A DNA stretch of 18,908 nucleotides from Pseudomonadota bacterium (GTDB taxonomy: Bacteria > Bdellovibrionota_B > Oligoflexia > Oligoflexales > RGVZ01), in contig JBEGVZ010000073.1 of the NCBI GenBank assembly GCA_041178085.1, positions 1-18,908 of the forward strand, read 5' to 3'. A program made the position numbers and the translations under genes. Positions 657 to 18,096 of the stretch are shown here, piece by piece; positions within the stretch are counted from its first letter, which is position 1; every line of letters begins with the position of its first letter. A model generated the notes under the pieces. The model was not told the origin of the DNA. It saw nothing but the letters and a program-made list of their open reading frames with translations, and did no database searches.

Positions 657-810
657 TACAAAAAAAATTATATTATAGAACCTCTGCGCCCCAATGCTTT
701 CAAGGCGGCGCAAGGGTGAATTACGCGCTTGCCAAGCCCTCTACGTTTGTCGTTAAAGGAACCCCCTGAGAAATTCAGCACAGAATTTATTGAAAGAGCT
801 TGGAGGACCA

Positions 811-2055: not shown

Positions 2056-3583
2056 CGCCAGGCATGTCATCGCGCTTCTGAGCGCTGCGCTGGTTTCCTC
2101 CACCGCACTGGCAGTCCCACGAACGACCGACGTGGTGATTGTTGGTGCGGGCTTGTCTGGACTCACTGCGGCCCACGAACTGAAGGGACGCGGGCTCTCG
2201 TACCACGTGCTTGAGCTGGCACCGATCATCGGCGGCCGCATCAAAACCGTTGCTTATTCCAGGCAGGAATTCCGCGCTTCCGCTGACGCGGGAATGGAAG
2301 AATATTGGGACAGCAACCCTGCCGTATCCCTGATCCGGAAACTAAAGCTTCCGATCCGCACTGACCCGGCAGTCTCCAGCATTGTGATCGGTGGCAAGCT
2401 CTATTCCTTGGGCGGCAAAAACCCAAGTCACCACTTACAAGACTTGTTTGACGCGGATGAACTTGCCGCGCTGGTCCGGTTCAATCAGCGCGTGGAAGCC
2501 TTGCTACAAGGCATCACTCCTGGAGGCGGAATCCCGGAAGACAGGAAGCACCTTGTCCACAAGTCATTCGCCGACTGGGTCAGGGAACAAAAACCCGGCC
2601 ACAAGGTTGAGGAGTGGATTCGCATCACGCTGGAGTGCGAAATCGGCACCGCGTGGGATCGCATATCGGCACTGGACGGGATTTCAGAGTTTCATATTTT
2701 CCTCGGGGAAGGGGAGACAAGCTACCGGGTTGCCGGTGGCAACGTGAAATTCATCGATGCGCTTGCCAGTGACGTCGGCCGTGAAAATATTTCTCTCAAT
2801 AAGCGCGTCATTCGCATCGCCCACAAGGATGGCCGTTCGCGAGTGACCTTTCTGTCCACTGACACCAACCGCAACGAAGAGATCGAAGCCCGCCATGTGA
2901 TCGTGACTGTGCCACTGTACCGCCTGATGGAAATCCAGTTCGAACCTGCGCTGTCCCAGGTCAAAAGGGACGCGATCGCCTCAATGACATGGGGGTCTTA
3001 CTTCAAGGTTCACGTGCTGGTGCCAAAATCGTCCGAGCGGTTCTGGACAGCCTCCTTGCCCTTGCTGTCTGACTCCGATCTGGGTGTGATCTACGATGGT
3101 AACCCGGACCAGGCGGGCGACAAGAATTCCCTGCGTGTGTTGTCTCTATTGATTGGCGGAGACAGGGCAGAACGCCTGAACTTCACCCCGCTCGACCAGG
3201 CGCGGGCAGAGATCAAGGCCGCGTTTGACAAGCTCTGGCCTGGATTTTCCGCTGGCATCGTCGACATGGAATTTTACCGTTACCACCCGCGGGCAATCGC
3301 GTCATGGCCAGTTGGCCGGTCACGATTTGACCAGCAATCGGACGAAATCCGCAAACCCGAAAACCGCGTCTATCTGGCTGGCGATCACACGGAAAGTTCC
3401 CATTCGGATGGTGCCGTTAATTCAGCGGTCAGGGCGGTTGCTCAAATTTTTAAATCTGAAGGCCTCAAGGCGGGCGAGACTTTGACGGCAAAACACAAGA
3501 AAACACAAAGAAAAATTTCGAAACTGAACAAAGACAAAAAACAGGGAAGGCAAAACCATGAGCCAGTCAATCAAAAGCTATAA
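2042..3583 (+). CDS. Flavin monoamine/amino-acid oxidase family protein with N-terminal signal peptide
   Basis: DVVIVGAGLSGLTAA..L..VLE....GGR FAD-binding motif, HVIVTVP, RVYLAGDHT and DGAVNSAVRA. Hydrophobic leader ending in ALA. Overlaps both neighbours. Confidence 0.88.
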   Translation: MFQFNARHVIALLSAALVSSTALAVPRTTDVVIVGAGLSGLTAAHELKGRGLSYHVLELAPIIGGRIKTVAYSRQEFRASADAGMEEYWDSNPAVSLIRKLKLPIRTDPAVSSIVIGGKLYSLGGKNPSHHLQDLFDADELAALVRFNQRVEALLQGITPGGGIPEDRKHLVHKSFADWVREQKPGHKVEEWIRITLECEIGTAWDRISALDGISEFHIFLGEGETSYRVAGGNVKFIDALASDVGRENISLNKRVIRIAHKDGRSRVTFLSTDTNRNEEIEARHVIVTVPLYRLMEIQFEPALSQVKRDAIASMTWGSYFKVHVLVPKSSERFWTASLPLLSDSDLGVIYDGNPDQAGDKNSLRVLSLLIGGDRAERLNFTPLDQARAEIKAAFDKLWPGFSAGIVDMEFYRYHPRAIASWPVGRSRFDQQSDEIRKPENRVYLAGDHTESSHSDGAVNSAVRAVAQIFKSEGLKAGETLTAKHKKTQRKISKLNKDKKQGRQNHEPVNQKL

Positions 3584-5036
3584 GATGTTCATCGGCGGCG
3601 AATTCGTGAGCGCTGCCTCGGGCAAGACCCGCGAAGTACGAGACCCGGGTAACAACAAGGTTGTGGCTCTTGTCCCGGAAAGCAGCAAGGAAGACATCGA
3701 TGCGGCCGTATATCAGGCTCGCCAGGCCTTCGATCACGGCCCGTGGCGTACGACGCAGGCCCTTGACCGTGCCAAGATCCTGTTCAAGATTGCGGAAGGC
3801 ATCCGCGCTCGCGCTCCAAAGCTCGCCGAGCTGGAAGTACTCAGCTGCGGCAAGCCCCTGGCCGAGGCCGAATACGACATCGCTGACGCCGCCAACTGCT
3901 TTGATTTTTATGCCGGCATGGCGACCAAGATCCATGGCGAGACCATGCAAGTCCCGGCCAACTCACTGAGCTTCGTCGTCCGCGAACCAATCGGTGTCTG
4001 CGGTCAGATCGTCCCCTGGAACTACCCGTTGCTCATGTCCTCCTGGAAACTGGCACCGGCCCTGGCTGCTGGCAATACATGTGTCTTGAAGCCTTCGGAA
4101 CTGACTCCGCTGACAGCACTTGAATTGGCCGAAATCCTGGTCGAGGCGGGATTGCCTGCGGGCGTGGTCAATATCGTGACCGGTCCCGGACCGGGATGCG
4201 GCGATGTCCTGTCGGCACACCCGCAAGTCGATAAGATCGCCTTCACAGGTGGTACCAACACCGGGCGCAGCGTCATGAGCGCCGCCACAGGCAATCTGAA
4301 AAAGGTGTCTCTGGAACTGGGCGGCAAGAATCCCAATATTGTGTTCGCCGACGCGGACTTCGAGGCCGCCGTGGACGGAGCTCTCTTTGGAGCGTTCGCC
4401 AACCAGGGTGAAGTCTGCTCTGCTGGATCTCGCCTGCTGGTCGACCGCAAGATCCACAAGCGCTTCGTCGAGGCAATGCTCAATAAGATCCCCAACATCA
4501 AGCTAGGCCACGGGCTTTCGGAAGGCGTCAAAATGGGGCCGGTGGTCAGCCGCTCCCACATGGAAAAAATCGAAGGCTACATCGCTTCTGGCATCGCTGA
4601 AGGCGCAAATCTTGTATGCGGCGGCAAACGCCCTGCTGAAAAAGCCCTTGTCGATGGCAACTTCATCGAACCGACGATTTTCGACGATGTCACACCGTCC
4701 ATGAAGATCGCCCGGGAAGAGATCTTCGGACCGGTCCTTGCCGTGATCCCCTTCGACACGGAAGAGGAAGCCATCCAGATCGCCAACGACACCGAATACG
4801 GCCTGGCTGCCGGTGTCTGGTCGCGTGACATCAACCGAGCCCTGCGCGTTGTTCGTGAGCTCCGTTGCGGCATCACCTGGATCAACACCTACCACCCGAC
4901 GTTCAATGAAATGCCATGGGGTGGTTACAAGCAAAGCGGCACCGGGCGGGAGCTTGGTTTGTACGGGATCGAGGAGTACCTGGAAACAAAACAGGTCAAC
5001 ATCAACCTCGATGAGGCTCCGATCGCCTGGTATTGA
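3558..5036 (+). CDS. NAD-dependent aldehyde dehydrogenase (betaine/aminoaldehyde dehydrogenase-like)
   Basis: IVPWNYP, KPSE, FTGGT, LELGGKNP (catalytic Glu), GEVCSAG (catalytic Cys), EEIFGP, PWGGYKQSG. Confidence 0.93.
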   Translation: MSQSIKSYKMFIGGEFVSAASGKTREVRDPGNNKVVALVPESSKEDIDAAVYQARQAFDHGPWRTTQALDRAKILFKIAEGIRARAPKLAELEVLSCGKPLAEAEYDIADAANCFDFYAGMATKIHGETMQVPANSLSFVVREPIGVCGQIVPWNYPLLMSSWKLAPALAAGNTCVLKPSELTPLTALELAEILVEAGLPAGVVNIVTGPGPGCGDVLSAHPQVDKIAFTGGTNTGRSVMSAATGNLKKVSLELGGKNPNIVFADADFEAAVDGALFGAFANQGEVCSAGSRLLVDRKIHKRFVEAMLNKIPNIKLGHGLSEGVKMGPVVSRSHMEKIEGYIASGIAEGANLVCGGKRPAEKALVDGNFIEPTIFDDVTPSMKIAREEIFGPVLAVIPFDTEEEAIQIANDTEYGLAAGVWSRDINRALRVVRELRCGITWINTYHPTFNEMPWGGYKQSGTGRELGLYGIEEYLETKQVNINLDEAPIAWY

Positions 5037-5050
5037 ACCGTTTGCTGCCA

Positions 5051-5086
5051 AGATTACGGAAGAGATTAGGGAAGAGATTGAGGAGA
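5051..5086 (+). repeat. Three imperfect 12-bp tandem repeats ending in the gabT RBS
   Basis: AGATTACGGAAG / AGATTAGGGAAG / AGATTGAGGAGA. Confidence 0.7.
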
Positions 5087-5093
5087 ACGCCCC

Positions 5094-6449
5094 ATGGCTG
5101 TTCGGATAAAGACAGAAATCCCAGGTCCACGCAGCCGGGAGTTGATGGCTGAGAGACAGGCACACGTTCCGCGCGGACCGTTCCACCTCACGCCAGTTTT
5201 TGTGAAATCAGCAAAAGGGGCGATGATTGAGGACGTTGACGGTAACTTGCTAATCGACTTCGCATCCGGCATTGGCGTGAACAATGTTGGTCATTGTAAC
5301 GAAGCCATTATCCATGCTGTCCAAGACCAAGCCAGCAAGTTTATGCACGTGGCTTTCAATGTTTCACCGTATGGATCGTACATCGATCTGTGCAAACGCC
5401 TGAACGCCATCACGCCGGGAGATTTTGCCAAGAAAACGTTTCTGGCGAATTCCGGGGCCGAAGCGGTCGAAAACGCGATCAAACTGGCACGCGCATTCAC
5501 CAAAAAGCAGGCGGTCGTCTGCTTCGATCACGCCTTTCACGGGCGGACGTACATGGCGATGACCCTGACATCAAAGGCCAAGCCCTACAAGATGGGCTTT
5601 GGCCCCTTCAACCCAGAGGTCTACCGCACGCCGTTTCCGTATGCCTACCGCTGGCCGGGAGCGAACACAGGCGGAGTGGTTACTGCGGCAGAACAGGCGC
5701 AAGTCGACGCCCAGTGTTTCGCCGAATTCAAGGATCTGGTGATAAACCGGATCACCCCGTATGACTGTGCCGCTGTCATCGTCGAGCCTGTCCTGGGTGA
5801 GGGTGGATTTATCCCGATGAGCCGCGGCTTTGCAGCCCTGCTGCGGGAATTCTGTACAACCCACAACATTGTGCTCATCGCGGACGAAATCCAATCTGGA
5901 TTTGGTCGCACAGGTGCCCTGTTTGCCTGCGAACAGCTGGGCCTTGTCCCCGACATGATGACTACGGCCAAGGGGCTGGGTGGCGGGATGCCTGTCTCCG
6001 CAGTGACAGGGCGCGCGGACATCATGGATTCTGCGGGCGAGGGGGGAATTGGCGGGACTTTCGGCGGTAGCCCGGTTTCTTGCGCAGCGGCCCTTGCCGT
6101 TTGCGAGATGTTTGAAAAAACGGACATCCTTGCCCGCTCACGAGCGCTCGGTGCACGTATCCATGAGACGTTGCTGGGGTGGCACGGAAAGTACCAATGT
6201 GTTGGCAACGTGCGTGGCCTTGGCACCATGATGGGCTTTGAACTGGTCCAGGATCGCACCACCAAAGAACCGTGGGCGGACGGTGCGAAGAAGCTGACTA
6301 AATACTGCTACGAAAACGGTCTGATCATCATGACGGCGGGCACTTACGGAAACGTCGTACGTCTGCTGATGCCCCTTGTAATCAAGGATGATGAACTCAA
6401 CGAAGGATTTGATATCCTTGAACGTGGCCTGAAAAGTTTGCATGCTTGA
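5094..6449 (+). CDS. gabT: 4-aminobutyrate--2-oxoglutarate transaminase (class III PLP aminotransferase)
   Basis: DVDGN..IDFASGIGV, NSGAEAVENAIK, AFHGRT, EPVLGEGGF, ADEIQSGFGRTG, AKGLGGGMP (PLP Lys), GGTFGG, AGTYGNVVR. GAGGAG RBS upstream. Confidence 0.88.
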   Translation: MAVRIKTEIPGPRSRELMAERQAHVPRGPFHLTPVFVKSAKGAMIEDVDGNLLIDFASGIGVNNVGHCNEAIIHAVQDQASKFMHVAFNVSPYGSYIDLCKRLNAITPGDFAKKTFLANSGAEAVENAIKLARAFTKKQAVVCFDHAFHGRTYMAMTLTSKAKPYKMGFGPFNPEVYRTPFPYAYRWPGANTGGVVTAAEQAQVDAQCFAEFKDLVINRITPYDCAAVIVEPVLGEGGFIPMSRGFAALLREFCTTHNIVLIADEIQSGFGRTGALFACEQLGLVPDMMTTAKGLGGGMPVSAVTGRADIMDSAGEGGIGGTFGGSPVSCAAALAVCEMFEKTDILARSRALGARIHETLLGWHGKYQCVGNVRGLGTMMGFELVQDRTTKEPWADGAKKLTKYCYENGLIIMTAGTYGNVVRLLMPLVIKDDELNEGFDILERGLKSLHA

Positions 6450-6470
6450 AAGATTCCCTGCGAGAGACCA

Positions 6471-7922
6471 ATGATCCGCTACCAACCCTATGTCGATGGC
6501 TCCTGGCGCGCAGCCAATTCGTTTGCACCGGTGCGCTCTCCCTACAGCGGGGACATCGTCGCTGAATGCGGATTGGCAGACAAAGGCATCATGCAATTGG
6601 CGATCACGGCGGCTGACCGTGACTTCCCGGCGTTTCGCCTTGCCCTCCGCGGGCAAAGGGCTCGCCTGCTGGCAGCCATGGCTCGCGGCATCGAGGCAAG
6701 GCGAGCGGAATTCATCAAGCGAATGATAAATGAAGCCGGCAAGCCGAAAACTTTGGCCAATGTCGAGGTGAGTCGCGCCATCATGACCTTCACCGCAGCA
6801 GCAGAGGAAGCCAAACGCCTCGGGGGCGAAGTCATTCCACTGGACGGTGAAGTCGCCAACGCGGGTTATGGTCCTGCGGTGTCATACTGGTTCGCCAAGA
6901 GCCCGGTGCTGGCCATTGCTCCATTCAATTTCCCGCTTAACTTGATCGCCCACAAAGTGGCGCCGGCTCTGGCAGTGGGTGCGCCCATCATCGTGAAACC
7001 ACCGCCCCAGGCGCCGGGTTGTGCCGTGCTTCTGGCTGAAATTTTTCACGAATGCCGTCAATCCGACGCGACGCTGCTGGATGCAATCCCGCCGGCAAGC
7101 CTTCAGGTCCTGGAGGCTCAAAACGACGTGACCGGTCTTGCGATCAAGGATCCGCGGATTGGTATACTGTCGTTCACCGGCAGCCAGAAGGTCGGCTGGA
7201 TGCTTCAGGGACTGGCCGTTGGCAAAAAGGTCGCGCTGGAACTTGGGGGAAACGCCGCTGTCATTGTCCACGAGGATGCAGACTTGCAGCGCGCTGCCGT
7301 ACGCTGTGCGTTTGGTGGCTTCGCCTATGCCGGCCAGATTTGTATCTCTGTGCAGCGAATTTTCGTTCATACCAAGGTCGAAAAAGACTTTATCCGGCTG
7401 CTCCTCGACGAAGTAGCCAAAGTGAACACGGGCGACCCTCAATCACCGGATGTCCTTTGTGGTCCACTGATCGATGAGGGGGCGACAAAGCGTGTCCTGT
7501 CATGGATTGAAGATGCTAAAAAGCGGGGGGCCCAGGTCCTTGCCGGCGGGACGCAAGCCGCTCACAATATGATCGCCCCGACCGTCATGACCAAAGTCCC
7601 CAAGGACCTGCCAATCGCCTGTGACGAAGTCTTCGGCCCGGTGGTAATTGTCGAGCCCTACCCGGACTTCGAAACTGCCGTCAACATGAGCAATGAATCG
7701 CTCTATGGCCTGCAGGCCGGGGTATTCACAGATAGCGCCCGACTGCAAAACCATGCTGTACAGAATCTTGATGTTGGCGGGGTCATCCTGAATGACATCC
7801 CCACATTCCGCGCGGACAACATGCCTTATGGCGGAGTCAAGGGTTCCGGCCTGGGGCGAGAAGGGGTCCGCTATGCCATGGAAGACTTTTGCGAGCGCCG
7901 TACCGTCGTCAACCGCACCTGA
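6471..7922 (+). CDS. Aldehyde dehydrogenase, ALDH21/lactaldehyde-dehydrogenase-like clade, possible succinate-semialdehyde dehydrogenase
   Basis: PFNFPLNLIAHKVAPA, FTGS, LELGGNAA, GQICISVQR, EVFGP, YGLQAGVFT, TFRADNMPYGGVKGSGLGREG. Confidence 0.9.
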   Translation: MIRYQPYVDGSWRAANSFAPVRSPYSGDIVAECGLADKGIMQLAITAADRDFPAFRLALRGQRARLLAAMARGIEARRAEFIKRMINEAGKPKTLANVEVSRAIMTFTAAAEEAKRLGGEVIPLDGEVANAGYGPAVSYWFAKSPVLAIAPFNFPLNLIAHKVAPALAVGAPIIVKPPPQAPGCAVLLAEIFHECRQSDATLLDAIPPASLQVLEAQNDVTGLAIKDPRIGILSFTGSQKVGWMLQGLAVGKKVALELGGNAAVIVHEDADLQRAAVRCAFGGFAYAGQICISVQRIFVHTKVEKDFIRLLLDEVAKVNTGDPQSPDVLCGPLIDEGATKRVLSWIEDAKKRGAQVLAGGTQAAHNMIAPTVMTKVPKDLPIACDEVFGPVVIVEPYPDFETAVNMSNESLYGLQAGVFTDSARLQNHAVQNLDVGGVILNDIPTFRADNMPYGGVKGSGLGREGVRYAMEDFCERRTVVNRT

Positions 7923-7932
7923 CTTGGGACAG

Positions 7933-10152
7933 TCACCGGTCTGTCGGTGATGGTCCGCCCTTGCGCCGTCCGCGGGCAACAGGACGGGTGCCCTTCTCCT
8001 TGATCGAGTCGTGCTTCATGGCTTCTTCGTAAGGGATCGACTTTATGCCCTGCAAGCGGGCCATTTCGATGAAACCTTGCTGGCACCGCACGGGAGGCTC
8101 AGACAGTCCAGGCGACAAACGTTTGTAGGACCCATCCGGTTGCAATACGCGGGCCTTCACATTGTCTGCCAGATAGAGCGCCAGCAAATTATTGATGATT
8201 GCTTCACGGTAATCTGAGTCTTCCACCGGGAACATGACCTCTACACGTCGGTCCATGTTTCGCGGCATCCAATCAGCACTGGATAAATAAACCTCGCGGG
8301 CGCCACCTGCATGGAAAAAATAAATCCGGCTGTGCTCCAGAAACCGGTCCACGACTGAGATGACGTGAATTCTATCGCTAAGTCCCGGGACGCCGGGCAC
8401 AAGGCAGCAAATCCCCCGCACGATCAACTTTACTTCGACTCCGGCCAGGGAGGCTTCATAAAGCTTGTCGATCAGTTCCTTGTCCACAAGCGCATTCATT
8501 TTGGCAACGATCTGGGCTTTTGCGCCTTTTTTCGCTTCGTTGATCTCCCGTTGGATCATCTCGATGATCCTTGTCCGCAAGGCAATCGGCGCAAGAATGA
8601 TGCGTTTAAAAGAAGGCATCGACACTTTGCGCCGCAATTTGCTTTCACCGCTCAAGATGTTAAAGCCCGTCAGCAGGTTGAAGATGGTCGATACATCTTC
8701 CCCAATTGCCTCATTGGCGGTGAAGTAGGAAAGGTCGGTGTAAAGCTTGGCCGTGCTCGAGTTGTAGTTGCCGGTAGAAAGGTTTACGTACCTCACCAGG
8801 CGGCCGCTTTCGCGGCGGACCACGAGGATGAGCTTGGAGTGAGTCTTGATACCTACGAAGCCAAAGACCACATTGACGCCGGCTCGCTCCAGGCGCCGCG
8901 CCCAGGTGATATTGTTTTTTTCGTCAAAACGGGCCTTCAGTTCAACAACAGCGGTCACTTGCTTGCCGTTTTCTGCCGCCCGGATCAAGGCGTCGATGAT
9001 CGGTGAATCACCGGAAGTCCTGTAAAGCGTCTGTTTGATCGCCAGGACATTGGGGTCATGGGCGGCCTGTTGTAAAAACTCGATCGTCGGATAAAACGAG
9101 TCGAATGGATGATGAAGAAGCAGGTCTTCTTCAAGGATCAACGAAAAAATATCGTCCCGGGATTCCATCTGGCGCGGCAGGCGCGGGTTGAATGGCGGGT
9201 CTTTCAACTGGGGCAATGGCAGATGATAAAGCCCCATCAAGCCGCTGAGCATCAGGGGGCCCTGCTTGTAGTAAACGTCAGATGGGGAAATGCGCAGCTC
9301 GCGCATCAGCAGCCGCATAACATTTTCAGGAAGCTCGGCTGCCAGGTCCAGGCGCACAGCCTCCTGATGTTCCCGGCTGGTGACTTCCCGCTGCACGGAC
9401 TTGAGCAGGTCGACCACTTCATTCTCTAACAGTGTGTAGTCGAGGTTGCGGGTCACACGCATCGGGCAGGAACTGGCAATCTCGAATCCCATGAACAGAG
9501 CACCAAGGTTTTCTGCCACCAGATCCTCCAGGAGCACAAACCAGCGTTTGCCCTCCGGTGCGGACGGGACAGGAATAAGGCGCGACAAAACGCTCGGCAC
9601 TTCAACCAATCCAATGGGTGGAATATCGATCAGGGCTTCATTGGAGGCGTTCACCCCCTTGAACTGGACCAGAAGGTACAGGGCAAGATTGGTCAGAAAA
9701 GGGAAGGGATGTGCCGGGTCTACGGCCATCGGGGTCAGGACCGGAAAGACCTCTTTACTAAAGTAACCCTGAAGGAATTCCTTCTGATGCGTTTCCAGGG
9801 TTGTGAACGGCACGATCTCGATCTGGTTGTCCTTCAAACCTGGCAGGACCGTATCACGCAGGCACTTATACTTGCGCGCCACCAGACCAATCACGCGTTT
9901 CCGGATCCCGGCGAGGGTTTCCTCGCCAGTCAGGGAGTCGGGCGAATCCGCCGCCTGGATGTCTTCCTCAACCATTTTCTTGAGGCCGGCAACGCGCACC
10001 ATGAAGAACTCATCGAGGTTGCTGGTGAAAATCGAGATGAATTTCAGTTTCTCAAGGAGCGGAGTCTCCTGTGACTCCGCCTCTGAGAGCACGCGCTCGT
10101 TGAATTCAAGCCAGCTGAGGTCCCGGTTGAAATAGCGTGGTGTTTGACTCAC
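7933..10152 (-). CDS. ppk1: Polyphosphate kinase 1
   Basis: YFNRDLSWLEFNERVL, NLDEFFMVRVAG, DPAHPFPF, KQTLYRTS, ELKARFDE, KTHSK, STGNYN, RFLEHSR, SSADWMPRN. AGGAG RBS 9 nt upstream of the GTG. Confidence 0.97.
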   Translation of the reverse strand: MSQTPRYFNRDLSWLEFNERVLSEAESQETPLLEKLKFISIFTSNLDEFFMVRVAGLKKMVEEDIQAADSPDSLTGEETLAGIRKRVIGLVARKYKCLRDTVLPGLKDNQIEIVPFTTLETHQKEFLQGYFSKEVFPVLTPMAVDPAHPFPFLTNLALYLLVQFKGVNASNEALIDIPPIGLVEVPSVLSRLIPVPSAPEGKRWFVLLEDLVAENLGALFMGFEIASSCPMRVTRNLDYTLLENEVVDLLKSVQREVTSREHQEAVRLDLAAELPENVMRLLMRELRISPSDVYYKQGPLMLSGLMGLYHLPLPQLKDPPFNPRLPRQMESRDDIFSLILEEDLLLHHPFDSFYPTIEFLQQAAHDPNVLAIKQTLYRTSGDSPIIDALIRAAENGKQVTAVVELKARFDEKNNITWARRLERAGVNVVFGFVGIKTHSKLILVVRRESGRLVRYVNLSTGNYNSSTAKLYTDLSYFTANEAIGEDVSTIFNLLTGFNILSGESKLRRKVSMPSFKRIILAPIALRTRIIEMIQREINEAKKGAKAQIVAKMNALVDKELIDKLYEASLAGVEVKLIVRGICCLVPGVPGLSDRIHVISVVDRFLEHSRIYFFHAGGAREVYLSSADWMPRNMDRRVEVMFPVEDSDYREAIINNLLALYLADNVKARVLQPDGSYKRLSPGLSEPPVRCQQGFIEMARLQGIKSIPYEEAMKHDSIKEKGTRPVARGRRKGGPSPTDR

Positions 10153-10186
10153 GGGGACTCACTCCTGTCCGTTGCCGATGCCGCCC

Positions 10187-11056
10187 TCAACCGGGGGGCA
10201 GGCGCTGCGCATCTACCAGGTTTACAAAGGTTATGTACTCCAGTAGCCAGACCATGACCCCGGAAAGGAAAATGACAGGAAAGGTCAGCAGCATCACGAA
10301 AACAGACGAAGACATGAATGCAAGACCAAACACCAAGATCGCAGCAAATCCAACAACCCCGGAAAAAACGAGACGCGATACTATAATCGGGACAGGATTC
10401 CTAAAGACACTTGAAAATGCGACTTTCAATGCCTGGACAGGACCAAAATCCGTCAGGACGACACCTGCGATGGCAAGCAAAGGAATCTCGGCAACGAGAT
10501 ACGAAACCATGAAGCCTACGACTTGAAGTAAGACATCCAAGGAGTCCATGCCGCCACCGCCCATGTCAGCTGCGGCATCCTTGCGATTCATTTGTTGCAG
10601 CGCTTGGTTCAACAAAACCTCAGGATTGAATCCATTGGAACCCTTGAACAGGATGAGCGCCTGGATTCCTGCAATCACGATAAACGGCACCACGAACATC
10701 GCCATAAGACCAAGTATCTTCAGTGGTATCTGCTTCATGGGCTGGAAAATCAGCTTACCCCGGAATTCCCCACGGGACACAAAATGGTCGATCACCGCGA
10801 ACGGGCCGAAAAAAGAAACTGCGACCATCACAAACAAGGACGCGATCCCGGCGGGAAGCGCAAGTACTGGAAACAGGAACGCCGTCCCACCTGAAAAACC
10901 AAGCACAACAAATGCAAGAAAAAGAGGCAAAAACACAAGGACAGCGAGAAACTTGAATGGAGCCTTCCCCAGCAGCTTCAAGGATTCCGGGATCCACCCG
11001 ATCGCCTGGCTGACCGTCACACTGCGGATTTTGTAGTCTGGATTCACAGTCGTCAT
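10187..11056 (-). CDS. Integral membrane protein (BPSS1780/YciC-like, about 5-6 TM)
   Basis: Start moved to ATG 11056 (AAGGAG RBS at 11067-11072), which removes the overlap with sixA. Amphipathic N-terminus AIGWIPESLKLLGKAP and the GPVQALKVAFSSVFRNP motif are typical of this group. Confidence 0.7.
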   Translation of the reverse strand: MTTVNPDYKIRSVTVSQAIGWIPESLKLLGKAPFKFLAVLVFLPLFLAFVVLGFSGGTAFLFPVLALPAGIASLFVMVAVSFFGPFAVIDHFVSRGEFRGKLIFQPMKQIPLKILGLMAMFVVPFIVIAGIQALILFKGSNGFNPEVLLNQALQQMNRKDAAADMGGGGMDSLDVLLQVVGFMVSYLVAEIPLLAIAGVVLTDFGPVQALKVAFSSVFRNPVPIIVSRLVFSGVVGFAAILVFGLAFMSSSVFVMLLTFPVIFLSGVMVWLLEYITFVNLVDAQRLPPG

Positions 11057-11061
11057 GCTTT

Positions 11062-11592
11062 TCAAGCTCCTTCGCCCAGCAGGGCTTTTGGTGATGTCCA
11101 AGTTAAAAGCTCCGAATCTCCCTTGAGTACCGCAAACCCGGCCTTCTTCAACCCGACATTGAAGTTGATCCCGGAGTGCCAGCACAAAATCTCGTTTATA
11201 GACGGACCGTGACCAACCAGGACCACGACTTCTCCTGGATCGATATTTGCCTGCAAACGTTGCCAGGCATGCTTCCATTCCTGCCAGGGGCTGTCCTGAT
11301 TCAATTCAGGCACCAGCATCATTTGAGGAGGAGCCCCGGCACCATCCTTGGCGCCAGCGGCGGTTGACGCCACCAGCAAACGATCTGCAGTCTCTCTGGC
11401 GCGCAAATATTCGGACGACAGAATCAGGGTTGGTTTCCAAACAGAAACAAGATGATCACATACCTGTGAAGTAAGTTTTATCCCCTCAGGAGTCAAAGGA
11501 CGAAGCCGATCCTCCCTGCGCCACTCCGATGGCTCCACGGCAGGTCCGTGACGCATAAGAATCAAGTATTTCGGTTTTGACTTGTCCGTCAT
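11062..11592 (-). CDS. sixA: SixA-type histidine phosphatase
   Basis: LILMRHG, D..RPLTPEG, SSEYLRARETA, VLVGHGPSI and KKAG.AVL; short 176-aa form. Confidence 0.8.
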   Translation of the reverse strand: MTDKSKPKYLILMRHGPAVEPSEWRREDRLRPLTPEGIKLTSQVCDHLVSVWKPTLILSSEYLRARETADRLLVASTAAGAKDGAGAPPQMMLVPELNQDSPWQEWKHAWQRLQANIDPGEVVVLVGHGPSINEILCWHSGINFNVGLKKAGFAVLKGDSELLTWTSPKALLGEGA

Positions 11593-11610
11593 CTGCGGGG
11601 CTTCGGCACG

Positions 11611-13032
11611 TTACTCAAGCAACTTGAACGCAGTCGCAGCAAAAAAACCGAGCAGAGTCGCAAATCCGGTCACTGTCGGCCCACCCTCGTGCGCGGCCTC
11701 TGGCAACATGGTCGATGCCACCATCGTGAGCATGGCACCACCGGCAATCCCCTCGATCCCTGTCGCGATGGCAGGGTCCAGCGAGGAGCCAATCAGAACT
11801 CCTGCCGCTGCAGAGAGGGAACAAACGATGGCAAGGGCTGACCAAAGCCCTATGATTTTCTGTTTTGAAAAACCTTGGTCGCGCATCGTCAACGCTGCAG
11901 AAAGAGCTTCTGGAAAGTTGGATATGAACATCCCGCCGACCAGAGTCATCGGGATGATATCCCAAAAACCGACGCCACCGGGCTGAGATTGCTTGGTGAG
12001 CACTAGACTCAGCACACCTGTGCCGATGACAAAGGCTTCTGGCACTCCGTCGATCACATTGCCGAGCCAGATCGCCATGGGCGAACCATGAAACTCGTCA
12101 TGGGCCTTTTTGATATCCAACTTGGTAGGAGCGGAGGCACCCCGGGCCAGGGCATCAATGGCCCGCTCTGACCACTCACGCACGCGGGTGGCGCTTTCCA
12201 CATGGCGGGCTTTGATTTCGCCAAGGCGTTCAGCAGCAAGATCCCGACATGCCACGTCCAGTTCAGGAGAAAGACTGCGTAGCCGGTCAAAATCCACCTT
12301 CGACAGGGTCAATACTTCTGTCGGGATAGTCACAGTTGCACTCGCCGTGCGGGGGCTGCCTGTCAACAAAGCAATCTCGCCGATCACAGAACTGACACCC
12401 AGGGTCTTGAGATGCTCGCCGTTGTGCTTGAGATCGACCTCGCCGGACTTGACGAAGACCATGAAGTCGCCCTCATCGCCCTGATCAAAAATCATGTCAC
12501 CAGCCTGGTATGCGCGCTCCTTGACCGAATCCACCAGGTCTTGAACGGCATTGGGAGGAACTGCTCGCAGCAGTTCGACCTGCCCCAGAACACGCAACAC
12601 TTCTTCATTCCGTTTGTTCTTCTGGCGACTCAGATAAGCCATGGAAGTCGCATATTTGCGCAGAAATCCACCCTTTGCGTTCAACAACTGGTCCGCGAGG
12701 ATGAAAATCAAGCCACCGAGGATCCCGCCAGCGATCAAGGTCAGAAGATTTGTAACTGGATCACCACCATGCCCGCCAGCGGCAACTTGCCCGGCATCGT
12801 GAGAGGCTGCAACCACGTGGCGTGCGCGTTCCAGAGCTTCAACGTGGGGCGCAACCAGCTCAAGGGCAAGAGCACAAAACAGGGCCCCTGCACCGAACGC
12901 CGCCATTCCACCAATCATGACCCGACTGGGCGATAGAAAGAAGGAGGCAAACGCCCCAGCGGGGAGGGCAACGGCGGCAACGAATCCCAGACCTGCCGCC
13001 CACATTGCAACGGTCATCGTGGCGTGTTCCAT
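11611..13032 (-). CDS. ZIP (ZupT/GufA) family metal transporter with an internal cyclic-nucleotide-binding domain
   Basis: ZIP motifs AFGAGAL, IDGVPEA, ISNFPEA, AGGAML.M...MLPEA. cNMP domain IFDQGDEGD..FVKSGEV...GEIALLTGSPRTAS at about 12223-12588. GGAGG RBS at 13041-13045 supports ATG 13032. Confidence 0.88.
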   Translation of the reverse strand: MEHATMTVAMWAAGLGFVAAVALPAGAFASFFLSPSRVMIGGMAAFGAGALFCALALELVAPHVEALERARHVVAASHDAGQVAAGGHGGDPVTNLLTLIAGGILGGLIFILADQLLNAKGGFLRKYATSMAYLSRQKNKRNEEVLRVLGQVELLRAVPPNAVQDLVDSVKERAYQAGDMIFDQGDEGDFMVFVKSGEVDLKHNGEHLKTLGVSSVIGEIALLTGSPRTASATVTIPTEVLTLSKVDFDRLRSLSPELDVACRDLAAERLGEIKARHVESATRVREWSERAIDALARGASAPTKLDIKKAHDEFHGSPMAIWLGNVIDGVPEAFVIGTGVLSLVLTKQSQPGGVGFWDIIPMTLVGGMFISNFPEALSAALTMRDQGFSKQKIIGLWSALAIVCSLSAAAGVLIGSSLDPAIATGIEGIAGGAMLTMVASTMLPEAAHEGGPTVTGFATLLGFFAATAFKLLE

Positions 13033-13036
13033 GATG

Positions 13037-14239
13037 TCAGCCTCCACTTCGCATCTTTGTTTTCAAAATTTTCGCTGCCTCGGCGTACCCACCGTCGCTT
13101 CCATCAATGAAATGAACATGGTTGTTTGTAGAAGGAACAAGACAGGTCAATATCGCAGCTTTTGACGAGTGTTGCCCGTACCAGATCAAACCTTGTGCCT
13201 CAAGGTTATCACAGGCGCGCATGAATTCGCGGAGCCACTCCTTGCTGCAATCAACAACAAACTTGAGTGAGCCGTCAAACTTCAGAAAGTCTGTATTCTC
13301 GATCAATTCCCGGCGGTAACGACCACCGAAAAACTGTGGAAAAATTTTTCCAGCGACAAATAACGCACGGACCAGGACATTGGTCATGAGCAGCCCGGAG
13401 GCGTAGAGCATACGTGCGCCAAATCGCACACCATCGGCACGTGCCCTGGTTTCTGCCGCAAGCTTTGCTGGATTGAGGGTGAGCTTCAAGTCGCGGACGT
13501 CGATGGCATGCCGCGATTGCCCCGGGAAACTGCGCGAATCAAGAAAGCCATTCAATTCCTGCATGATTGCAGAACGCTGCGCCCCTTCAGCAACCCTGAA
13601 AACAATGATGAAGCACGATTTGAAACCTCGTTTACTGGGCAACGAATCCCAGCGGCACTGAAGCCCCGAAAGATCCATGTCCTCGATTCTGCCGGTTTCG
13701 CCCTCTGGAATGATGGCTCCCGATGGCAGACCACCGCGCTTCAATTGCTCCTCAGCAAGCCCCCATCCGGATCCGTATAATGATGCGAGATCGTTCATGG
13801 GGCTCAGTGTGTATTTATGAACCTGGAATTGGGTATCCTCATTGACCAGGGCTTCGACCGGAAAGGTGGCTACGCGGATCGACAGTCCGTAGGCAGAGTT
13901 CCCCATAGCTCTGACCGCCGCCAGGCCGCTCCGGAGGCGGGGGATGACGTGACCTGGAACCGCGATGGTGGCGCCATCGCCGCCGAAAACGAAAGGGATC
14001 GAGTTTGGCTGGGACAAGTTCCGGGCACAGGCGATGACAGCTGCGCCGAGCATGTTAACCTGCTTGTAACGGCCGTTTCGAATTGCCTCAGTAGACCCCT
14101 GAACATCGGCCACCACGACATGCCAGCCAGACGGCAGGCTTATTCCTGAACTGGCGACCGTGGCGTCCACGAAAGATGGCAGGGGCTTCAGCAGGTCATA
14201 AAAATCGGCATTTTCACCCGACAAATCAGACGTCGCCAT
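13037..14239 (-). CDS. DUF3095-like protein with nucleotidyl cyclase/palm-type motifs
   Basis: LPSGWHVVVADVQGST..I..GRYKQVNMLGA, PFVFGGDGAT, DLSGLQCRW, DFLKFDGSL, HVHFIDGSDGGYAEAAK match my recollection of DUF3095. Confidence 0.8.
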   Translation of the reverse strand: MATSDLSGENADFYDLLKPLPSFVDATVASSGISLPSGWHVVVADVQGSTEAIRNGRYKQVNMLGAAVIACARNLSQPNSIPFVFGGDGATIAVPGHVIPRLRSGLAAVRAMGNSAYGLSIRVATFPVEALVNEDTQFQVHKYTLSPMNDLASLYGSGWGLAEEQLKRGGLPSGAIIPEGETGRIEDMDLSGLQCRWDSLPSKRGFKSCFIIVFRVAEGAQRSAIMQELNGFLDSRSFPGQSRHAIDVRDLKLTLNPAKLAAETRARADGVRFGARMLYASGLLMTNVLVRALFVAGKIFPQFFGGRYRRELIENTDFLKFDGSLKFVVDCSKEWLREFMRACDNLEAQGLIWYGQHSSKAAILTCLVPSTNNHVHFIDGSDGGYAEAAKILKTKMRSGG

Positions 14240-14858
14240 TGCTGTCCATTCCAGCGGGCAAGTCGTCGCCAGTTACCAGGGCATGGACACTGCCAACACT
14301 GAGCTCCATAGCCTCAGCGATCTTTTTGAAGGATTTGCCGTCAGCTTTCATTGACCGTGCGAGGATCTGTTTCTCGCGTGTGAGCTTGGCAGGCGCCCCA
14401 AGTTTAACTCCACGCTTTTTGGCGGCCTCCAGGCCGGAACGCACACGCTGCACGATCGTCTCACGTTCAATCTCTGCAATCTCCGCGAAAGCAGCGAGCA
14501 TGGTCCGGCGAAACGGATTTGCGTGACCGAGGTTAAGGACAGGCTGGGTTACTGAGATAAATCCGACGCCGTACTCGTCCATCTCGAGCAAAGTCTTTAT
14601 GGCAACTGTGGCATTACGACTGAGGCGGTCCAGGCGGTAGACCACGATCGTGTCAATCTGCCGGTTGACTGCCATGTTCATGAGCTGCCGGTAACCGGGG
14701 CGGTTTTCGTGTTTTCCAGATATGCCCTCGTCCTCCAGGACGTGCACCTTGGACGGTTTCTTTGGCAGCTCAGACAACCATTTCTCCACAGTGTTCTTCT
14801 GGGAAGCAAGATCCTGCCTGTCTGTAGAAACCCGGTAATAGATTGCGATTTTATCCAT
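14226..14858 (-). CDS. Small serine recombinase (resolvase/invertase family) with C-terminal HTH
   Basis: IYYRVSTDRQ (catalytic Ser), DEGISG..RPG, RLDRLSR, AFAEIAEIERETIVQRVRSGL.AAK.RG..LG and HTH SFKKIAEAMELSVGSV. Confidence 0.93.
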   Translation of the reverse strand: MDKIAIYYRVSTDRQDLASQKNTVEKWLSELPKKPSKVHVLEDEGISGKHENRPGYRQLMNMAVNRQIDTIVVYRLDRLSRNATVAIKTLLEMDEYGVGFISVTQPVLNLGHANPFRRTMLAAFAEIAEIERETIVQRVRSGLEAAKKRGVKLGAPAKLTREKQILARSMKADGKSFKKIAEAMELSVGSVHALVTGDDLPAGMDSNGDV

Positions 14859-14864
14859 GATTTC

Positions 14865-14893
14865 AGGTTAACAAAAAGCGTCCGCGATTTAAA
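14865..14893 (-). promoter_or_regulatory. Putative sigma-70 promoter with extended -10, giving a leaderless transcript of the resolvase
   Basis: Minus strand reads TTTAAA-N17-TAACCT with TGn before the -10, then GAAATC and the ATG. No Shine-Dalgarno sequence. Confidence 0.5.
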
Positions 14894-14910
14894 GCTGCCC
14901 ACTGCGCCAC

Positions 14911-14937
14911 TCAAGGGAATCACGCCAGTTCCGACCT
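14911..14937 (+). promoter_or_regulatory. Putative sigma-28 (FliA)-type promoter
   Basis: TCAA(G)-N15-TCCGACCT versus consensus TAAA-N15-GCCGATAA; weakest of the three matches. Confidence 0.4.
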
Positions 14938-14980
14938 GACAGGAGGAAGCGGAGATCCACAAACCGACCGGGAGTCAAGG

Positions 14981-16852
14981 ATGACTTTCTTGGCATTGAA
15001 GAGGACAGCCTGCGCTGCAGGGGCGGCATCGCTGCTCACAGCAACCAGCGCCTATGCTGTCGATAAAACAACGGGACCCTTCCGCCTTGGCGCCGGTGTC
15101 GAGGGTGGGCGTGTGTCCGTCCTCTCGGAGAAGCCAACCGAACTGGATAAGTCGGGCCCTTCATATGGCATGAGGGCATTTGCTGAAATCAATAGCAGAT
15201 GGCTAACTTTTACTCTGGGCGGATCGAGGCAAACAACCAGGCTATCAGGTGAAGATAAAACCCGGGGCGTGGGCCAGGATTTGACGGTAAACACGGCAAC
15301 TGGCCAAACCGGTCTATTCCTGAACTTCACACGCAAGCTGAGCCTGGGCCTTGCTGGACGGATTCACAAGGGACCATCTGCAGACTATGGCGTTCAGGTA
15401 GACGACGCGCAAAAAACCTTCCGCGATGCCGGTCCAGCCTTAAGAGCATCGATTCCGCTATTAACTCGCTACAACATTATCGCCGAAGCCGCGTGGCTGC
15501 GCTCCCTGAACAGCGAAGAACGCAAGGTTAGTACGGTGCTTGCATCTCTTTCAGCGTCCATCCCGGTTAATCTGCCCTCATTTGGTAAAACCACAATGGC
15601 GGCAAAGATCATCGCTCAACCCGGCCAGATAACTTCTACGGATGAATTCCGTCCGACGGTCTCAAATCTTTATTTCCAATACGCCAGTGATGAACTCGCC
15701 CCCGAATCAATCAAAGATGTGCAAACAATCGTCGACGCCTTGAAGCGACAAAACCTGGGGGACCAAAGGATTGAGATCAGTGGGTTCGGCAGCCGCACAG
15801 GCAGTCCACGCAGGACTCTCGCAGTGTCGCTGCAAAGGGCAGAGAAAATCGCAGCAATGCTGATCGAAGCAGGCATACCAGCTTCCGCAATGGAGGTCGC
15901 CGGCTTTGGCAGCTCCGAACTTGATCCGTTGGAGGCTCCTGATGGAGACCGCCAGAGAAGGGTTGTGGTGAAGTTGAAAAGAACCCGGCCACAGCCCCAG
16001 GATGTGACTACTTATGCGCTTTCAATGAGTGGCAGGCGAATACCCCCAAGTGTTGTGTACAAAGCAGAAGAACTATGGGGAATCCTTGAAACAGTCCAAG
16101 CAATGCGTAACTCGGAGAATAAATCCCTGTCTGTCTCGGTCGATTTGCCAGCAAGCGTCGCCCGCCAACCAGGCACATGGGAGAAGGTCCGCGAAGGAAT
16201 CAATGTCATTGTTAGTGCGGGGTTGTCAAAAAATGGCCTTGTAACAAGGGTAAGTGGCAGAAGGGGAGACATCCTGTTCAAAATAACCACAACAGATAAC
16301 CGGCTTCTTGCCCGGCTAGATGAAGTCCAGCAAATGCAAAACAAGCTGGTAGCGGTAAATGTAGATCGACTTCAAACCGACGATTTACCAGACAAACTCA
16401 TTGCTTCATCAAAACTCTGGACAGCCATAGAAGTTCCTTCCAGGGAAATCCGTCAGCGTCTTATCGATGAAGGCATCGCGCCGGGCAGGATCCGACTGGG
16501 TCAGCAATCAGACCTGTGGTCTTACACGACCGAATCCATTCAGCAATCTGGTCCGAGCAAGGGCGTGATCGTTGTCCACGCCAGCCGTTCAAAAAAGAGA
16601 CTCGAGACTGCATTGCGTTCAAACGTTCCTGAACAGGTCACACGGGTGACGACACCTTCTCGGGAAAAGAAGGAACCAGCGCCCAAACCCGACCATGCGA
16701 AAGACGCTATTTTGCGATTGATGGCGAAACCCTTAATCGAGAAAGAAAAATCCACGAAACCAGATAGTAAAGAACTGCCAGCCAAATCCCATCGCAGGGA
16801 TCCGTGGCAAACGGTTCCTCTTGGGGGGGGAACTCCATCTGGCACACCGTGA
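14981..16852 (+). CDS. Exported OmpA-family protein: signal peptide, probable beta-barrel, OmpA-like C-domain, degenerate OmpA-like repeats and a Lys/Pro-rich tail
   Basis: Signal peptide ending in AYA. Alternating beta-strand pattern in the first ~200 aa. LYFQYASDEL...IEISGFGSRTG....LAVSLQRAEKI...L..AG.....AGFG...RRVVV. Confidence 0.75.
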   Translation: MTFLALKRTACAAGAASLLTATSAYAVDKTTGPFRLGAGVEGGRVSVLSEKPTELDKSGPSYGMRAFAEINSRWLTFTLGGSRQTTRLSGEDKTRGVGQDLTVNTATGQTGLFLNFTRKLSLGLAGRIHKGPSADYGVQVDDAQKTFRDAGPALRASIPLLTRYNIIAEAAWLRSLNSEERKVSTVLASLSASIPVNLPSFGKTTMAAKIIAQPGQITSTDEFRPTVSNLYFQYASDELAPESIKDVQTIVDALKRQNLGDQRIEISGFGSRTGSPRRTLAVSLQRAEKIAAMLIEAGIPASAMEVAGFGSSELDPLEAPDGDRQRRVVVKLKRTRPQPQDVTTYALSMSGRRIPPSVVYKAEELWGILETVQAMRNSENKSLSVSVDLPASVARQPGTWEKVREGINVIVSAGLSKNGLVTRVSGRRGDILFKITTTDNRLLARLDEVQQMQNKLVAVNVDRLQTDDLPDKLIASSKLWTAIEVPSREIRQRLIDEGIAPGRIRLGQQSDLWSYTTESIQQSGPSKGVIVVHASRSKKRLETALRSNVPEQVTRVTTPSREKKEPAPKPDHAKDAILRLMAKPLIEKEKSTKPDSKELPAKSHRRDPWQTVPLGGGTPSGTP

Positions 16853-16861
16853 ATTTTTTCC

Positions 16862-16888
16862 TAAAGGATCTTATGGCAGATCCGATCC
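16862..16888 (+). promoter_or_regulatory. Putative sigma-28 (FliA)-type promoter
   Basis: TAAA(G)-N15-TCCGATCC in the intergenic gap before ATG 16927. Confidence 0.55.
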
Positions 16889-16926
16889 CTCACCGGGGCT
16901 ATGATTCGATTAGAGGGCAGATAGGT

Positions 16927-18096
16927 ATGAACAATTTCAGTATCATTGGTGCAGGACTGACCGGGATCTTCTGTCTAGCACTTCCAGCCTTGGCCGCAAC
17001 CAAGCCCGCTGAACCTTTGGATTCCCGGGACGTACCTGAATACCGTGTTTTTTTTGAGCGCAGCGACAAGCTTGATGGCAAGTCATTGGCCTTTATACAA
17101 AGTTTAGCCAAAATCGCAGCGAAGAATAACGGATCCATTAAGGAAATAGTCGTCGAAGGTCATGCAAGCAGGACTGGCGCGGAAGAAGCCAACCGCCGTG
17201 TTAGCATGTTGCGGGCTGAAACCGTTGCCGGAATCTTCACTTCAGCTGGTATGAAGCCCGAAGCGATCCGCGTGACTGCCTTCGGTAGCTCGCAACCGGT
17301 CGACGAACTTCCGGCAAGCCATGCTGAACAGCGACGTGCCACGGTCGCATTTCAATTCAGTGACGACGTCACTGGACCCTTGTCGGCGTTGCAAGAACTA
17401 GCAAAGTCCAGCCTCGAATATGTTTCTGTCGAGAAAAAAGGACTTCGTGCAAGGGATGAGGTGATCCTTTCCAGCACAAGCTGGAAACCCGTCAACGGCG
17501 TTGTTGATCCAAGGACTTTCCTTCCGGCCACAGAGATTCTAGCCGTTGACCGGATGGCAAAAGCCCTGGTCAAAAGCAAGAAAACCGGGGGCTTCATTGC
17601 CATCACCATGCCCGCAAGCGCCCTCGGGAGTAAAGCCGGACGGGAAACATTCGCAAGGTACAACAGAGTGCTAAAGCAGATCGGAGTCAGCCGGCGAAAG
17701 CTGTTGACCAGGTTTGATTCCCGTTCTGAATCGATTGAAATCGCGGTACACACCTTCAAACGCAATCAAGATGTTCTGGCACTTGGCGCGAAAATTGCTG
17801 AAACAGCACGCAATTCGGCTGCCATCAGGCTGGTAGACAAACGACCGGTGGCACGCTTTGCACCATTCCTTGCGAAGAACTCCGACTTGTGGTCTCAGGT
17901 TGAAGTCGTCAACGGAGGACCCAAGGCAGAGCAGGTTCGCGCCGCTCTGATTCGCCAGGGAGTCCCGGCGAAACGAATTAAGACCCGCCCAGGTTACCTT
18001 AATCGCCGGGTGATCGTTTCCGTCAGCTCAAGCCAGGGCTCAAGTAGCGACATCCAAAAAATCCTTGATGAAGCGCTTCAGAGGACTGCTCACTAG
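16927..18096 (+). CDS. Exported OmpA-like domain protein, paralogue of the C-terminal part of the upstream gene
   Basis: ATG 16927 yields a signal peptide MNNFSIIGAGLTGIFCLALPALA. VFFERSDKL...IVVEGHASRTG....NRRVSMLRAETV....AG......AFGSSQP...QRRATV. Confidence 0.78.
   Translation: MNNFSIIGAGLTGIFCLALPALAATKPAEPLDSRDVPEYRVFFERSDKLDGKSLAFIQSLAKIAAKNNGSIKEIVVEGHASRTGAEEANRRVSMLRAETVAGIFTSAGMKPEAIRVTAFGSSQPVDELPASHAEQRRATVAFQFSDDVTGPLSALQELAKSSLEYVSVEKKGLRARDEVILSSTSWKPVNGVVDPRTFLPATEILAVDRMAKALVKSKKTGGFIAITMPASALGSKAGRETFARYNRVLKQIGVSRRKLLTRFDSRSESIEIAVHTFKRNQDVLALGAKIAETARNSAAIRLVDKRPVARFAPFLAKNSDLWSQVEVVNGGPKAEQVRAALIRQGVPAKRIKTRPGYLNRRVIVSVSSSQGSSSDIQKILDEALQRTAH

Follow-up and report, generated by a model that had tools for sequence, protein, structure and literature searches.

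A ZIP-fold transporter with a predicted inserted cyclic nucleotide-binding domain and its genus-limited adjacency to a cyclase-like DUF3095 gene

Introduction

In MloK1, SthK, HCN/CNG, SLC9C1 and PKG/PKA the cyclic nucleotide-binding domain (CNBD) is a C-terminal appendage. PMC10256678 places the third transmembrane helix (TM3) of the ZIP transporter BbZIP in the scaffold and TM4-6 in the elevator domain, and reports that the TM3-TM4 loop, with His149 and His151, regulates uptake negatively. In adenylyl cyclase (AC) a Lys/Asp pair, K938/D1018, is described as specifying the base (PMC3591389). The window analysed here is a whole stretch of 18,908 nucleotides (contig JBEGVZ010000073.1 of assembly GCA_041178085.1, forward strand) from a Pseudomonadota bacterium of the GTDB lineage Bdellovibrionota_B, Oligoflexia, Oligoflexales, RGVZ01. 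On its minus strand a gene of the family DUF3095 is followed at once by a gene for a ZIP-fold transporter with a CNBD, and a first-pass annotation had read the two as a candidate system in which the DUF3095 protein makes a cyclic nucleotide that its neighbour senses to control ion flux.

The pairing consists of two real proteins in an adjacency that is limited to one genus and dispensable, and it is not a general system. Both folds (as predicted models), the motifs, the gene order and the patchy pairing are shown directly, and the functions given to the two proteins are inferred. Because the pairing is confined to one genus and the cyclase-like gene is lost in relatives, the transporter more likely reads a general cyclic AMP (cAMP) pool than a private partner. 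We regard it as probable that divalent-metal transport by the ZIP is switched by cyclic nucleoside monophosphates (cNMPs) from the general cAMP/cyclic GMP (cGMP) pool and that DUF3095 is a dispensable cyclase-like passenger rather than a dedicated partner.

Results

The ZIP open reading frame (ORF) matches the Pfam family cNMP_binding at residues 173-251 (E 6.5e-17; 61.7 bits against a cut-off of 27.5). Its predicted model (pLDDT 87.1) places three N-terminal membrane helices and a linker helix (127-150) before the CNBD, and a C-helix (256-274), a low-confidence linker (277-301) and five more helices after it. Aligned with VIA, the model matches BbZIP (PDB 7z6m) at Z 24.2 and an rmsd of 2.6, with 235 of the 238 7z6m residues aligned, and the CNBD matches CNB-B of PKG II (5bv6) at Z 20.3 and an rmsd of 1.6; TM5-TM8 also align to BbZIP by sequence (E 0.0017). 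As modelled, the protein is an eight-TM ZIP fold with the CNBD inserted between TM3 and TM4. The ZIP-cNMP fusion of the first-pass annotation stands in so far as ZIP and CNBD share one ORF, but the CNBD is an insertion inside the ZIP and not a terminal fusion.

Since the TM3-TM4 loop of BbZIP regulates uptake, the CNBD occupies a known regulatory position. Its phosphate-binding cassette is intact (G218, E219, R228, T229), and cassette and structural match together support the putative cNMP-sensing domain that had been proposed for the transporter. The cassette is also intact in 76 of 120 homologues and 44 of 80 loci. In a group of mostly Limnohabitans- or Comamonadaceae-labelled loci (L064-L066, L070, L072-L074, L076-L078, L080) the cassette Arg is replaced by His, Gly or Thr; in the two members of this group that were scanned, L064 and L077, the ZIP-CNBD gene lies between an ion-channel gene and ureD, a hint of nickel supply to urease.

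The putative transport site of the window's ZIP is formed by DGVPE on TM4 (D328, E332) and SNFPE on TM5 (S371, N372, E375). D328, N372, E375 and E445 are invariant in 120 of 120 homologues and E332 is kept in 115. For these two helices of ZIP transporters PMC13192868 describes motifs of the HNxPEG type. In the window's ZIP the Pro-Glu is kept in both TM4 and TM5, and the His-Asn of TM4 is replaced. A transport site without His ligands suits harder ions such as Mn2+ or Fe2+, and on grounds of coordination chemistry these ions would be favoured here because the His ligands are lost.

The fusion is widespread, with at least 475 confirmed ZIP-CNBD stretches in a scan of species genomes, and the titles of the best 80 loci name Planctomycetes, Proteobacteria, Myxococcota, Latescibacterota and others. 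Among 148 ZIP/CNBD representatives, 77 combine one CNBD with a ZIP; proteins with more are common, 42 carrying two CNBDs and 4 carrying three or more. None of the 148 contains a DUF3095 domain. A literature search confined to the main texts of papers open without subscription found no paper on a ZIP-CNBD fusion and none naming DUF3095, PF11294 or IPR021445.

The gene upstream of the ZIP gene, which had been called DUF3095-like, is a full-length member of PF11294 (325.8 bits against a cut-off of 22.2; residues 13-393 on profile positions 1-378). The family is large, with at least 1971 matches among 8000 candidates scored; no longer fused form (745-2125 aa) was seen among 7999 candidates, which says little. 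The AlphaFold model of the protein, made with a 120-row alignment, is confident (pLDDT 92.7, pTM 0.92). All 23 Foldseek matches at E <=0.001 are class III cyclase structures, including AC9, AC8, AC5, human soluble AC and PaPycC (6yii), with the best E at 6e-6 (AC9) and a TM-score of ~0.38. VIA aligned 261 residues with AC9, spanning 14-400, at Z 13.3 and an rmsd of 4.2, and reached Z 12.4 for 6yii; the first non-cyclase rows are Csm1/Cas10 at Z ~9. An Atlas model agrees weakly, its N-half giving a TM-score of 0.49 (by row) to Guanylate_cyc and of 0.57 to GGDEF. The cyclase/palm-type fold suspected at first pass thus reappears in the structural searches, and the models predict a single-chain tandem class III cyclase-like fold, C1-C2-like, whose N-half (~36-182) carries D45, D88 and R122 and whose C-half carries K320, D379, A386 and K390.

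Sequence comparison gave no such link. No PF00211 (Guanylate_cyc) match was found in DUF3095 at E up to 0.1; against PDB chains the single sequence had 0 matches and the profile had 2, at E 0.34 and 1.2. Profile-profile alignment of the two halves with 12 class III cyclase domains of the genus, or with each other, stayed below 2% probability, a result that is uninformative because the template was shallow, so that the link to cyclases rests on structure.

The putative catalytic positions were inferred from motif spacing against a class III cyclase of the same genome, not from superposition. Conservation was taken from 120 aligned homologues and from a second set of 80 metagenomic loci; the latter were retrieved by scan patterns made of the D88, K320 and D379 motifs, a caveat to the reading below. 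D45 in VVADVQGST and D88 in FVFGGDG, the Asp pair pointed out in the first-pass annotation, lie at the ends of model strands 39-47 and 83-85, do not vary in either set (120/120 and 80/80) and stand in register with the cyclase of the same genome. R122 on the fourth strand is kept in 119/120 and 80/80. The base-reading Lys position of the N-half is occupied by V84. In the C-half, K320 takes the Lys position (118/120, 72/80) and D379 the base-reading Asp/Thr position (119/120, 80/80), with a variable S324 at the second-Asp position. The metal Asp residues of the N-half and the Lys/Asp of the C-half form a sequence pattern, by spacing, that would imply one composite active site with an adenine signature like that of AC. 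Further residues, C195, D317, T365, C366 and H376, are invariant and have no counterpart in the cyclase mapping.

The Asn and Arg of helix alpha4 that serve as reference positions in cyclases (N1025, R1029) are not reproduced in DUF3095, where, by spacing, A386 and K390 stand in their place. Since active cyclases without the Asn exist, Rv1900c being the example in PMC4886424, its absence lowers the status of DUF3095 as a canonical member and not the prospect of cyclase-like working. Synthesis of cAMP or cGMP by DUF3095 is somewhat more likely than not.

The pairing was surveyed from both sides, in the best 80 ZIP-CNBD genome loci and in 80 metagenomic DUF3095 loci, with a flank of at least 1.5 kb present upstream in 65 of the 80 ZIP loci and downstream in 52 of the 80 DUF loci. 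Neighbours came from crude ORF picking, and many picks have no Pfam match and some may be in wrong frames; once near-duplicates had been set aside (L133, which nearly repeats L132, on the DUF side, and 18 neighbours from nine loci on the ZIP side), the scan covered 137 of 139 DUF neighbours and 122 of 140 ZIP neighbours. DUF3095 adjoins one of the 80 ZIP-CNBD loci (L002, which is G005 and of the same genus as the window), and neither a CNBD nor a ZIP was found near DUF3095 in any of the 80 metagenomic loci. The Pfam scan of the 137 DUF neighbours revealed no cNMP_binding and no dominant partner, and the 122 ZIP neighbours include a single class III cyclase, on the opposite strand (L021).

Whole genomes give the same picture. 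DUF3095 occurs anywhere in 3 of 78 ZIP-CNBD genomes outside the window's genus, a total in which L051, although searched a second time, enters once. Of the 131 genomes of the window's phylum, 6 carry the ZIP and 3 carry both genes, in each case all within one genus, and DUF3095 is present in 33; the sister genus has DUF3095 in 11 of 14 genomes and the ZIP in 0 of 14. The adjacency was not seen to recur across independent lineages. The check that the first-pass annotation had itself named, whether the two genes occur together elsewhere, thus largely goes against it, and a conserved cyclase-ZIP system finds no support in this survey. Other DUF3095 neighbours in the 80 metagenomic loci include MazG-family nucleotide pyrophosphohydrolases (3; L109, L170, L181), Na+/H+ exchangers (3; L131, L137, L139) and histidine phosphatases (2; L182, L184).

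Within the genus, six of seven genomes carry the ZIP and three keep DUF3095 (G000, G003, G005). The gene order is resolvase, DUF3095 where present, ZIP-CNBD, a variable slot, sixA, a second variable slot and ppk1. In the window 4 nt separate the end of the DUF3095 TGA (13037) from the ZIP ATG (13032), and an RBS-like (ribosome-binding-site-like) GGAGG (13045-13041) lies inside the final DUF3095 codons, 8 nt 5' of the ATG; gap and motif are both as first described. G003, with a gap of 2 nt, and G005, where the genes overlap by 1 nt, have a nearly identical tight junction. In G004 and G006, which lack DUF3095, 11 nt separate the resolvase stop from the ZIP start, and this junction has a purine-rich RBS-like stretch of its own. 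In G001 a 132-nt spacer between resolvase and ZIP (L187:7979-8109, G001:C39) encodes decayed DUF3095 fragments, matching DUF residues 44-59 and 371-399 (tblastn E 1e-4 and 3e-9), next to an intact ZIP, so that DUF3095 has decayed in place at least once. The G001 ZIP is 94% identical to that of the DUF-bearing G005, its sister in the ZIP tree (100/100). A second loss in the genus is probable, the branch order of G004 and G006 being not firmly resolved. Altogether 3 of the 6 genomes with the ZIP have no intact DUF3095, through loss or decay, and the ZIP and its cassette are intact in all 6.

Other cyclases are at hand: 2-4 were found in each of the five genus genomes tested, the DUF-less ones included, and G000 has 3 ordinary cyclases and 6 CNBD matches. 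Ordinary class III cyclases (PF00211) were also found in 50 of 50 ZIP-CNBD genomes tested outside the genus. The resolvase stands upstream of the ZIP in all 6 ZIP-bearing genus genomes, as against 3 of 6 for DUF3095. A resolvase ~4.5 kb from DUF3095 in G009 was considered as an ancestral linkage and rejected, as the same block in G008 shows no DUF.

The features of the run are listed in Table 1. The remaining gaps are -14 nt (an overlap) between resolvase and DUF3095, 18 nt between ZIP and sixA, 5 nt between sixA and the BPSS1780-like gene and 34 nt between the latter and ppk1; the tight DUF-ZIP spacing is common to the whole run and nothing special. The DUF-ZIP junction is spanned by contigs from two further public runs (X2 record 5, 11615-13854; X3 record 10, 12763-13720) and is therefore no assembly artefact. 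Promoter and terminator scans stayed at chance level (1 against 3.4 expected and 13 against 9.0), and no convincing recombination-site repeats were found in 9800-15200.

Table 1 Features of the minus-strand gene run in the window, from its first gene to its last
Feature	Position	Strand	Basis or remark
Serine recombinase/resolvase-family gene	14226..14858	-	PF00239 E 5e-36; first of run
DUF3095 gene, 400 aa	13037..14239	-	PF11294 E 5e-97
GGAGG, RBS-like motif for ZIP gene	13041..13045	-	sequence
ZIP-fold transporter with one inserted CNBD, 473 aa	11611..13032	-	Pfam and predicted model
Inserted CNBD, residues ~137-279	12196..12624	-	VIA match; PDB sequence matches to PKG, PKA-R, MloK1
Phosphate-binding cassette G218-E219...R228-T229 of CNBD	12343-12381	-	sequence
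SixA-like histidine phosphatase	11062..11592	-	TIGR00249 E 5.8e-8, below cut-off; downstream of ZIP
BPSS1780-like membrane protein	10187..11056	-	NF041043 E 1.8e-6, below cut-off
Polyphosphate kinase ppk1	7933..10152	-	last gene of run

The slots on either side of sixA vary. Four other loci of the genus extend this far, and in none was the BPSS1780-like gene seen at the equivalent position. Between ZIP and sixA, G001 (L187:5237-6559) and G003 (L188:3729-5009) carry a protein of 426-440 aa with a signal-peptide-like N-terminus, no Pfam or PADLOC family and hypothetical proteins as Atlas neighbours (<=0.85). Contigs of three other runs (X2, X3 and X4) leave the window's sequence at the ZIP stop (11553-11615), and the X2 sixA contig runs upstream into other DNA, suggesting strain-level insertions between ZIP and sixA. 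The resolvase is 83-92% identical across the genus (ppk1 80-81%) and 70-77% identical in two sister genera; it is found in differing chromosomal surroundings where no mobile element is obvious, and it behaves as a core gene would. It may be a domesticated serine recombinase.

Elsewhere in the window, the plus strand at 790-7922 encodes a saccharopine-dehydrogenase-like protein, a flavin amine oxidase, two aldehyde dehydrogenases and a class III aminotransferase, a cluster that resembles polyamine or GABA catabolism and is convergent with ppk1. At 14981-18096, also on the plus strand and divergent from the resolvase, lie two tandem genes for secreted proteins with OmpA domains, 623 and ~406 aa in length, in which long stretches lack annotation; related genes also adjoin the resolvase in G004 and G005.

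Discussion

The probable picture, a ZIP that listens to the cell's general cNMP pool, can be given a tentative mechanism. Binding of a cNMP to the CNBD would move the C-helix (256-274), which the low-confidence linker (277-301) connects to TM4 in the mobile elevator domain, and the CNBD would stand in for the His-rich zinc-sensing loop that autoinhibits BbZIP. The His-free, oxygen-rich site (D328, E332, S371, N372, E375) would favour Mn2+ or Fe2+ over Zn2+. DUF3095 would form one C1/C2-like site, with D45/D88 and R122 from the N-half and the base-reading pair K320/D379 from the C-half, and would most likely convert ATP to cAMP, which joins the common pool.

Several observations weigh against parts of this picture. 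The Pfam Zip match of the transporter (364-463; E 5.7e-6, 26.2 bits) lies below the cut-off of 35.1, the insertion splitting the domain, and the CNBD cassette departs from its intact form in 44 of 120 homologues and 36 of 80 loci. For the cyclase part, identity to cyclases is 8-13% at the TM-score of ~0.38 given above, the Asn position is Ala in 110/120 and 67/80, and the Arg position is basic in 90/120 but in just 41/80 of the second set. The genomes are mostly incomplete metagenome-assembled genomes and not independent, for which reason we give counts and no statistics, and the 50 of 50 genomes with ordinary cyclases are consistent with a general pool but carry little weight because class III cyclases are common. 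The adjacency has also been kept over near-saturated divergence: DUF3095 pairs from the three genus genomes show 57-77% identity, a synonymous divergence (dS) of at least 1.5 and a nonsynonymous divergence (dN) of 0.15-0.39, values which indicate that the gene is under purifying selection where it is kept. The genus-type DUF3095 proteins form a separate long-branch clade (stem 1.81, SH-aLRT 100), apart from the sister-genus copies, that retains all putative catalytic residues. Because the ZIP was seen in no other genus of the phylum, a joint arrival of DUF3095 and ZIP is possible.

The persistence of the pair at such divergence speaks for a dedicated module limited to the genus, in which the co-translated ZIP-CNBD would read locally a cyclic nucleotide, perhaps of an unusual kind, that DUF3095 produces, DUF-less relatives using other cyclases. 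With it go the 4-nt gap with its embedded RBS-like motif and the tight junctions of G003 and G005, the distinct clade with its catalytic residues kept and a clade-specific change at R319, and a compatible chemistry, a predicted cyclase beside an intact CNBD. We nevertheless consider this module unlikely. Half of the ZIP-bearing genus genomes have lost DUF3095 or hold its remains with the cassette unchanged, the resolvase-ZIP linkage is the steadier one, genes also come and go in other slots of the run, and the pair was seen nowhere outside the genus (80 ZIP loci, 80 DUF loci, 78 outside genomes). Equally unlikely is its fullest form, in which the diverged DUF3095 subfamily of this one genus is a genuine single-chain cyclase that arrived together with a cNMP-gated ZIP and feeds it locally. 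If this held, no earlier cyclase-transporter pair would have a second messenger as the direct gate of an elevator-type metal transporter, and DUF3095 would gain a function.

Less probable still is that DUF3095 keeps the cyclase fold for another nucleotide chemistry, such as a linear or oligomeric nucleotide, transfer or hydrolysis, with no relation to the CNBD ligand. The Asn-to-Ala change, the poorly kept Arg position of the second set, the invariant residues outside the cyclase mapping and the Cas10/Csm1 palm matches would all suit it, and Atlas feature neighbours among FBP aldolase/phosphatase and Thg1 (0.75-0.76) are leads only. Against it, the best structural matches to the whole chain come from tandem adenylyl cyclases, whose Z of 10-13 exceeds that of the Cas10 rows, the K320/D379 spacing fits an adenine-reading pair, and Rv1900c works in spite of its missing Asn. 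An abortive-infection pair of the Pycsar type, a tandem cyclase with a CNBD-bearing membrane effector next to a recombinase, is very improbable: the match to PaPycC (a two-domain clade A PycC by the account in PMC11224242), the patchy presence and the upstream serine recombinase would fit, but a PADLOC search gave no family for DUF3095 at E up to 0.1 and ZIP matches confined to the generic CNBD stretch, the ZIP retains what look like complete transporter motifs, the two genes mostly occur apart, the block keeps its synteny with sixA and ppk1 throughout the genus, and the other window neighbours are metabolic or envelope genes.

With a general-pool ZIP and a passenger DUF3095 as the preferred reading, what is new is the DUF3095/ZIP-CNBD adjacency together with the evidence that it is genus-limited and dispensable, and the interest lies mainly in the probably cNMP-regulated ZIP. 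The TM3-TM4 loop is the site of zinc autoregulation in ZIPs, and a widespread family places a cAMP/cGMP sensor there; with this family one can test directly whether a second messenger controls an elevator transporter and metal uptake. If DUF3095 makes cAMP, it would be an unrecognised messenger source in many bacteria. The natural pair of the genus conveniently provides the two genes for such tests, even should their linkage be incidental.

Among known systems, DUF2652, which is treated in PMC4886424 as predicted to be class III cyclase-like, is likewise a computationally recognised DUF without the Asn, but it is presented there as a separate family with a single domain of ~250 aa; '3095' does not appear in the main text of that paper. 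The tandem cyclase cores (AC9/AC8/AC5 C1-C2, ADCY10 and PaPycC) are matched by DUF3095 over the whole chain with ~260 residues aligned, and by motif spacing the two metal Asp fall in its first half and the Lys/Asp in its second. DUF3095 differs from them in its low identity, the missing PF00211 match, the Ala at the Asn and the variable Arg position, and in having neither a sensor nor a membrane domain, its cyclase role being predicted. In Pycsar (PycC with PycTM or PycTIR) a cyclase gene likewise adjoins a cNMP-receptor gene, and clade A PycC is described in PMC11224242 as two-domain; here, in contrast, the pairing is not obligate, the cyclase-like gene has no PADLOC match and the would-be effector is a full putative ZIP transporter.

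With MloK1, SthK, HCN/CNG, SLC9C1 and PKG/PKA the transporter shares the CNBD fold and the Gly-Glu...Arg-Thr cassette (Z 15-20), but here the putative CNBD interrupts a ZIP between its scaffold half and its elevator half. BbZIP of Bordetella bronchiseptica (PDB 7z6m, 5tsa, 8ght), a GufA-type prokaryotic ZIP, has the eight-helix ZIP core in common with it, and the BbZIP QDVPE aligns with SNFPE on TM5, sharing the Pro-Glu. The two differ in that the TM4 His-Asn positions of BbZIP are Asp-Gly here by motif spacing, that BbZIP E276 aligns to T441 and that the model of the window's ZIP has no extra N-terminal helix. Both have a regulatory element, putative in the window's ZIP, in the cytoplasmic TM3-TM4 loop, as PMC10256678 describes it for BbZIP; there the loop holds the His149/His151 zinc sensor, whereas here it holds a CNBD of ~140 residues.

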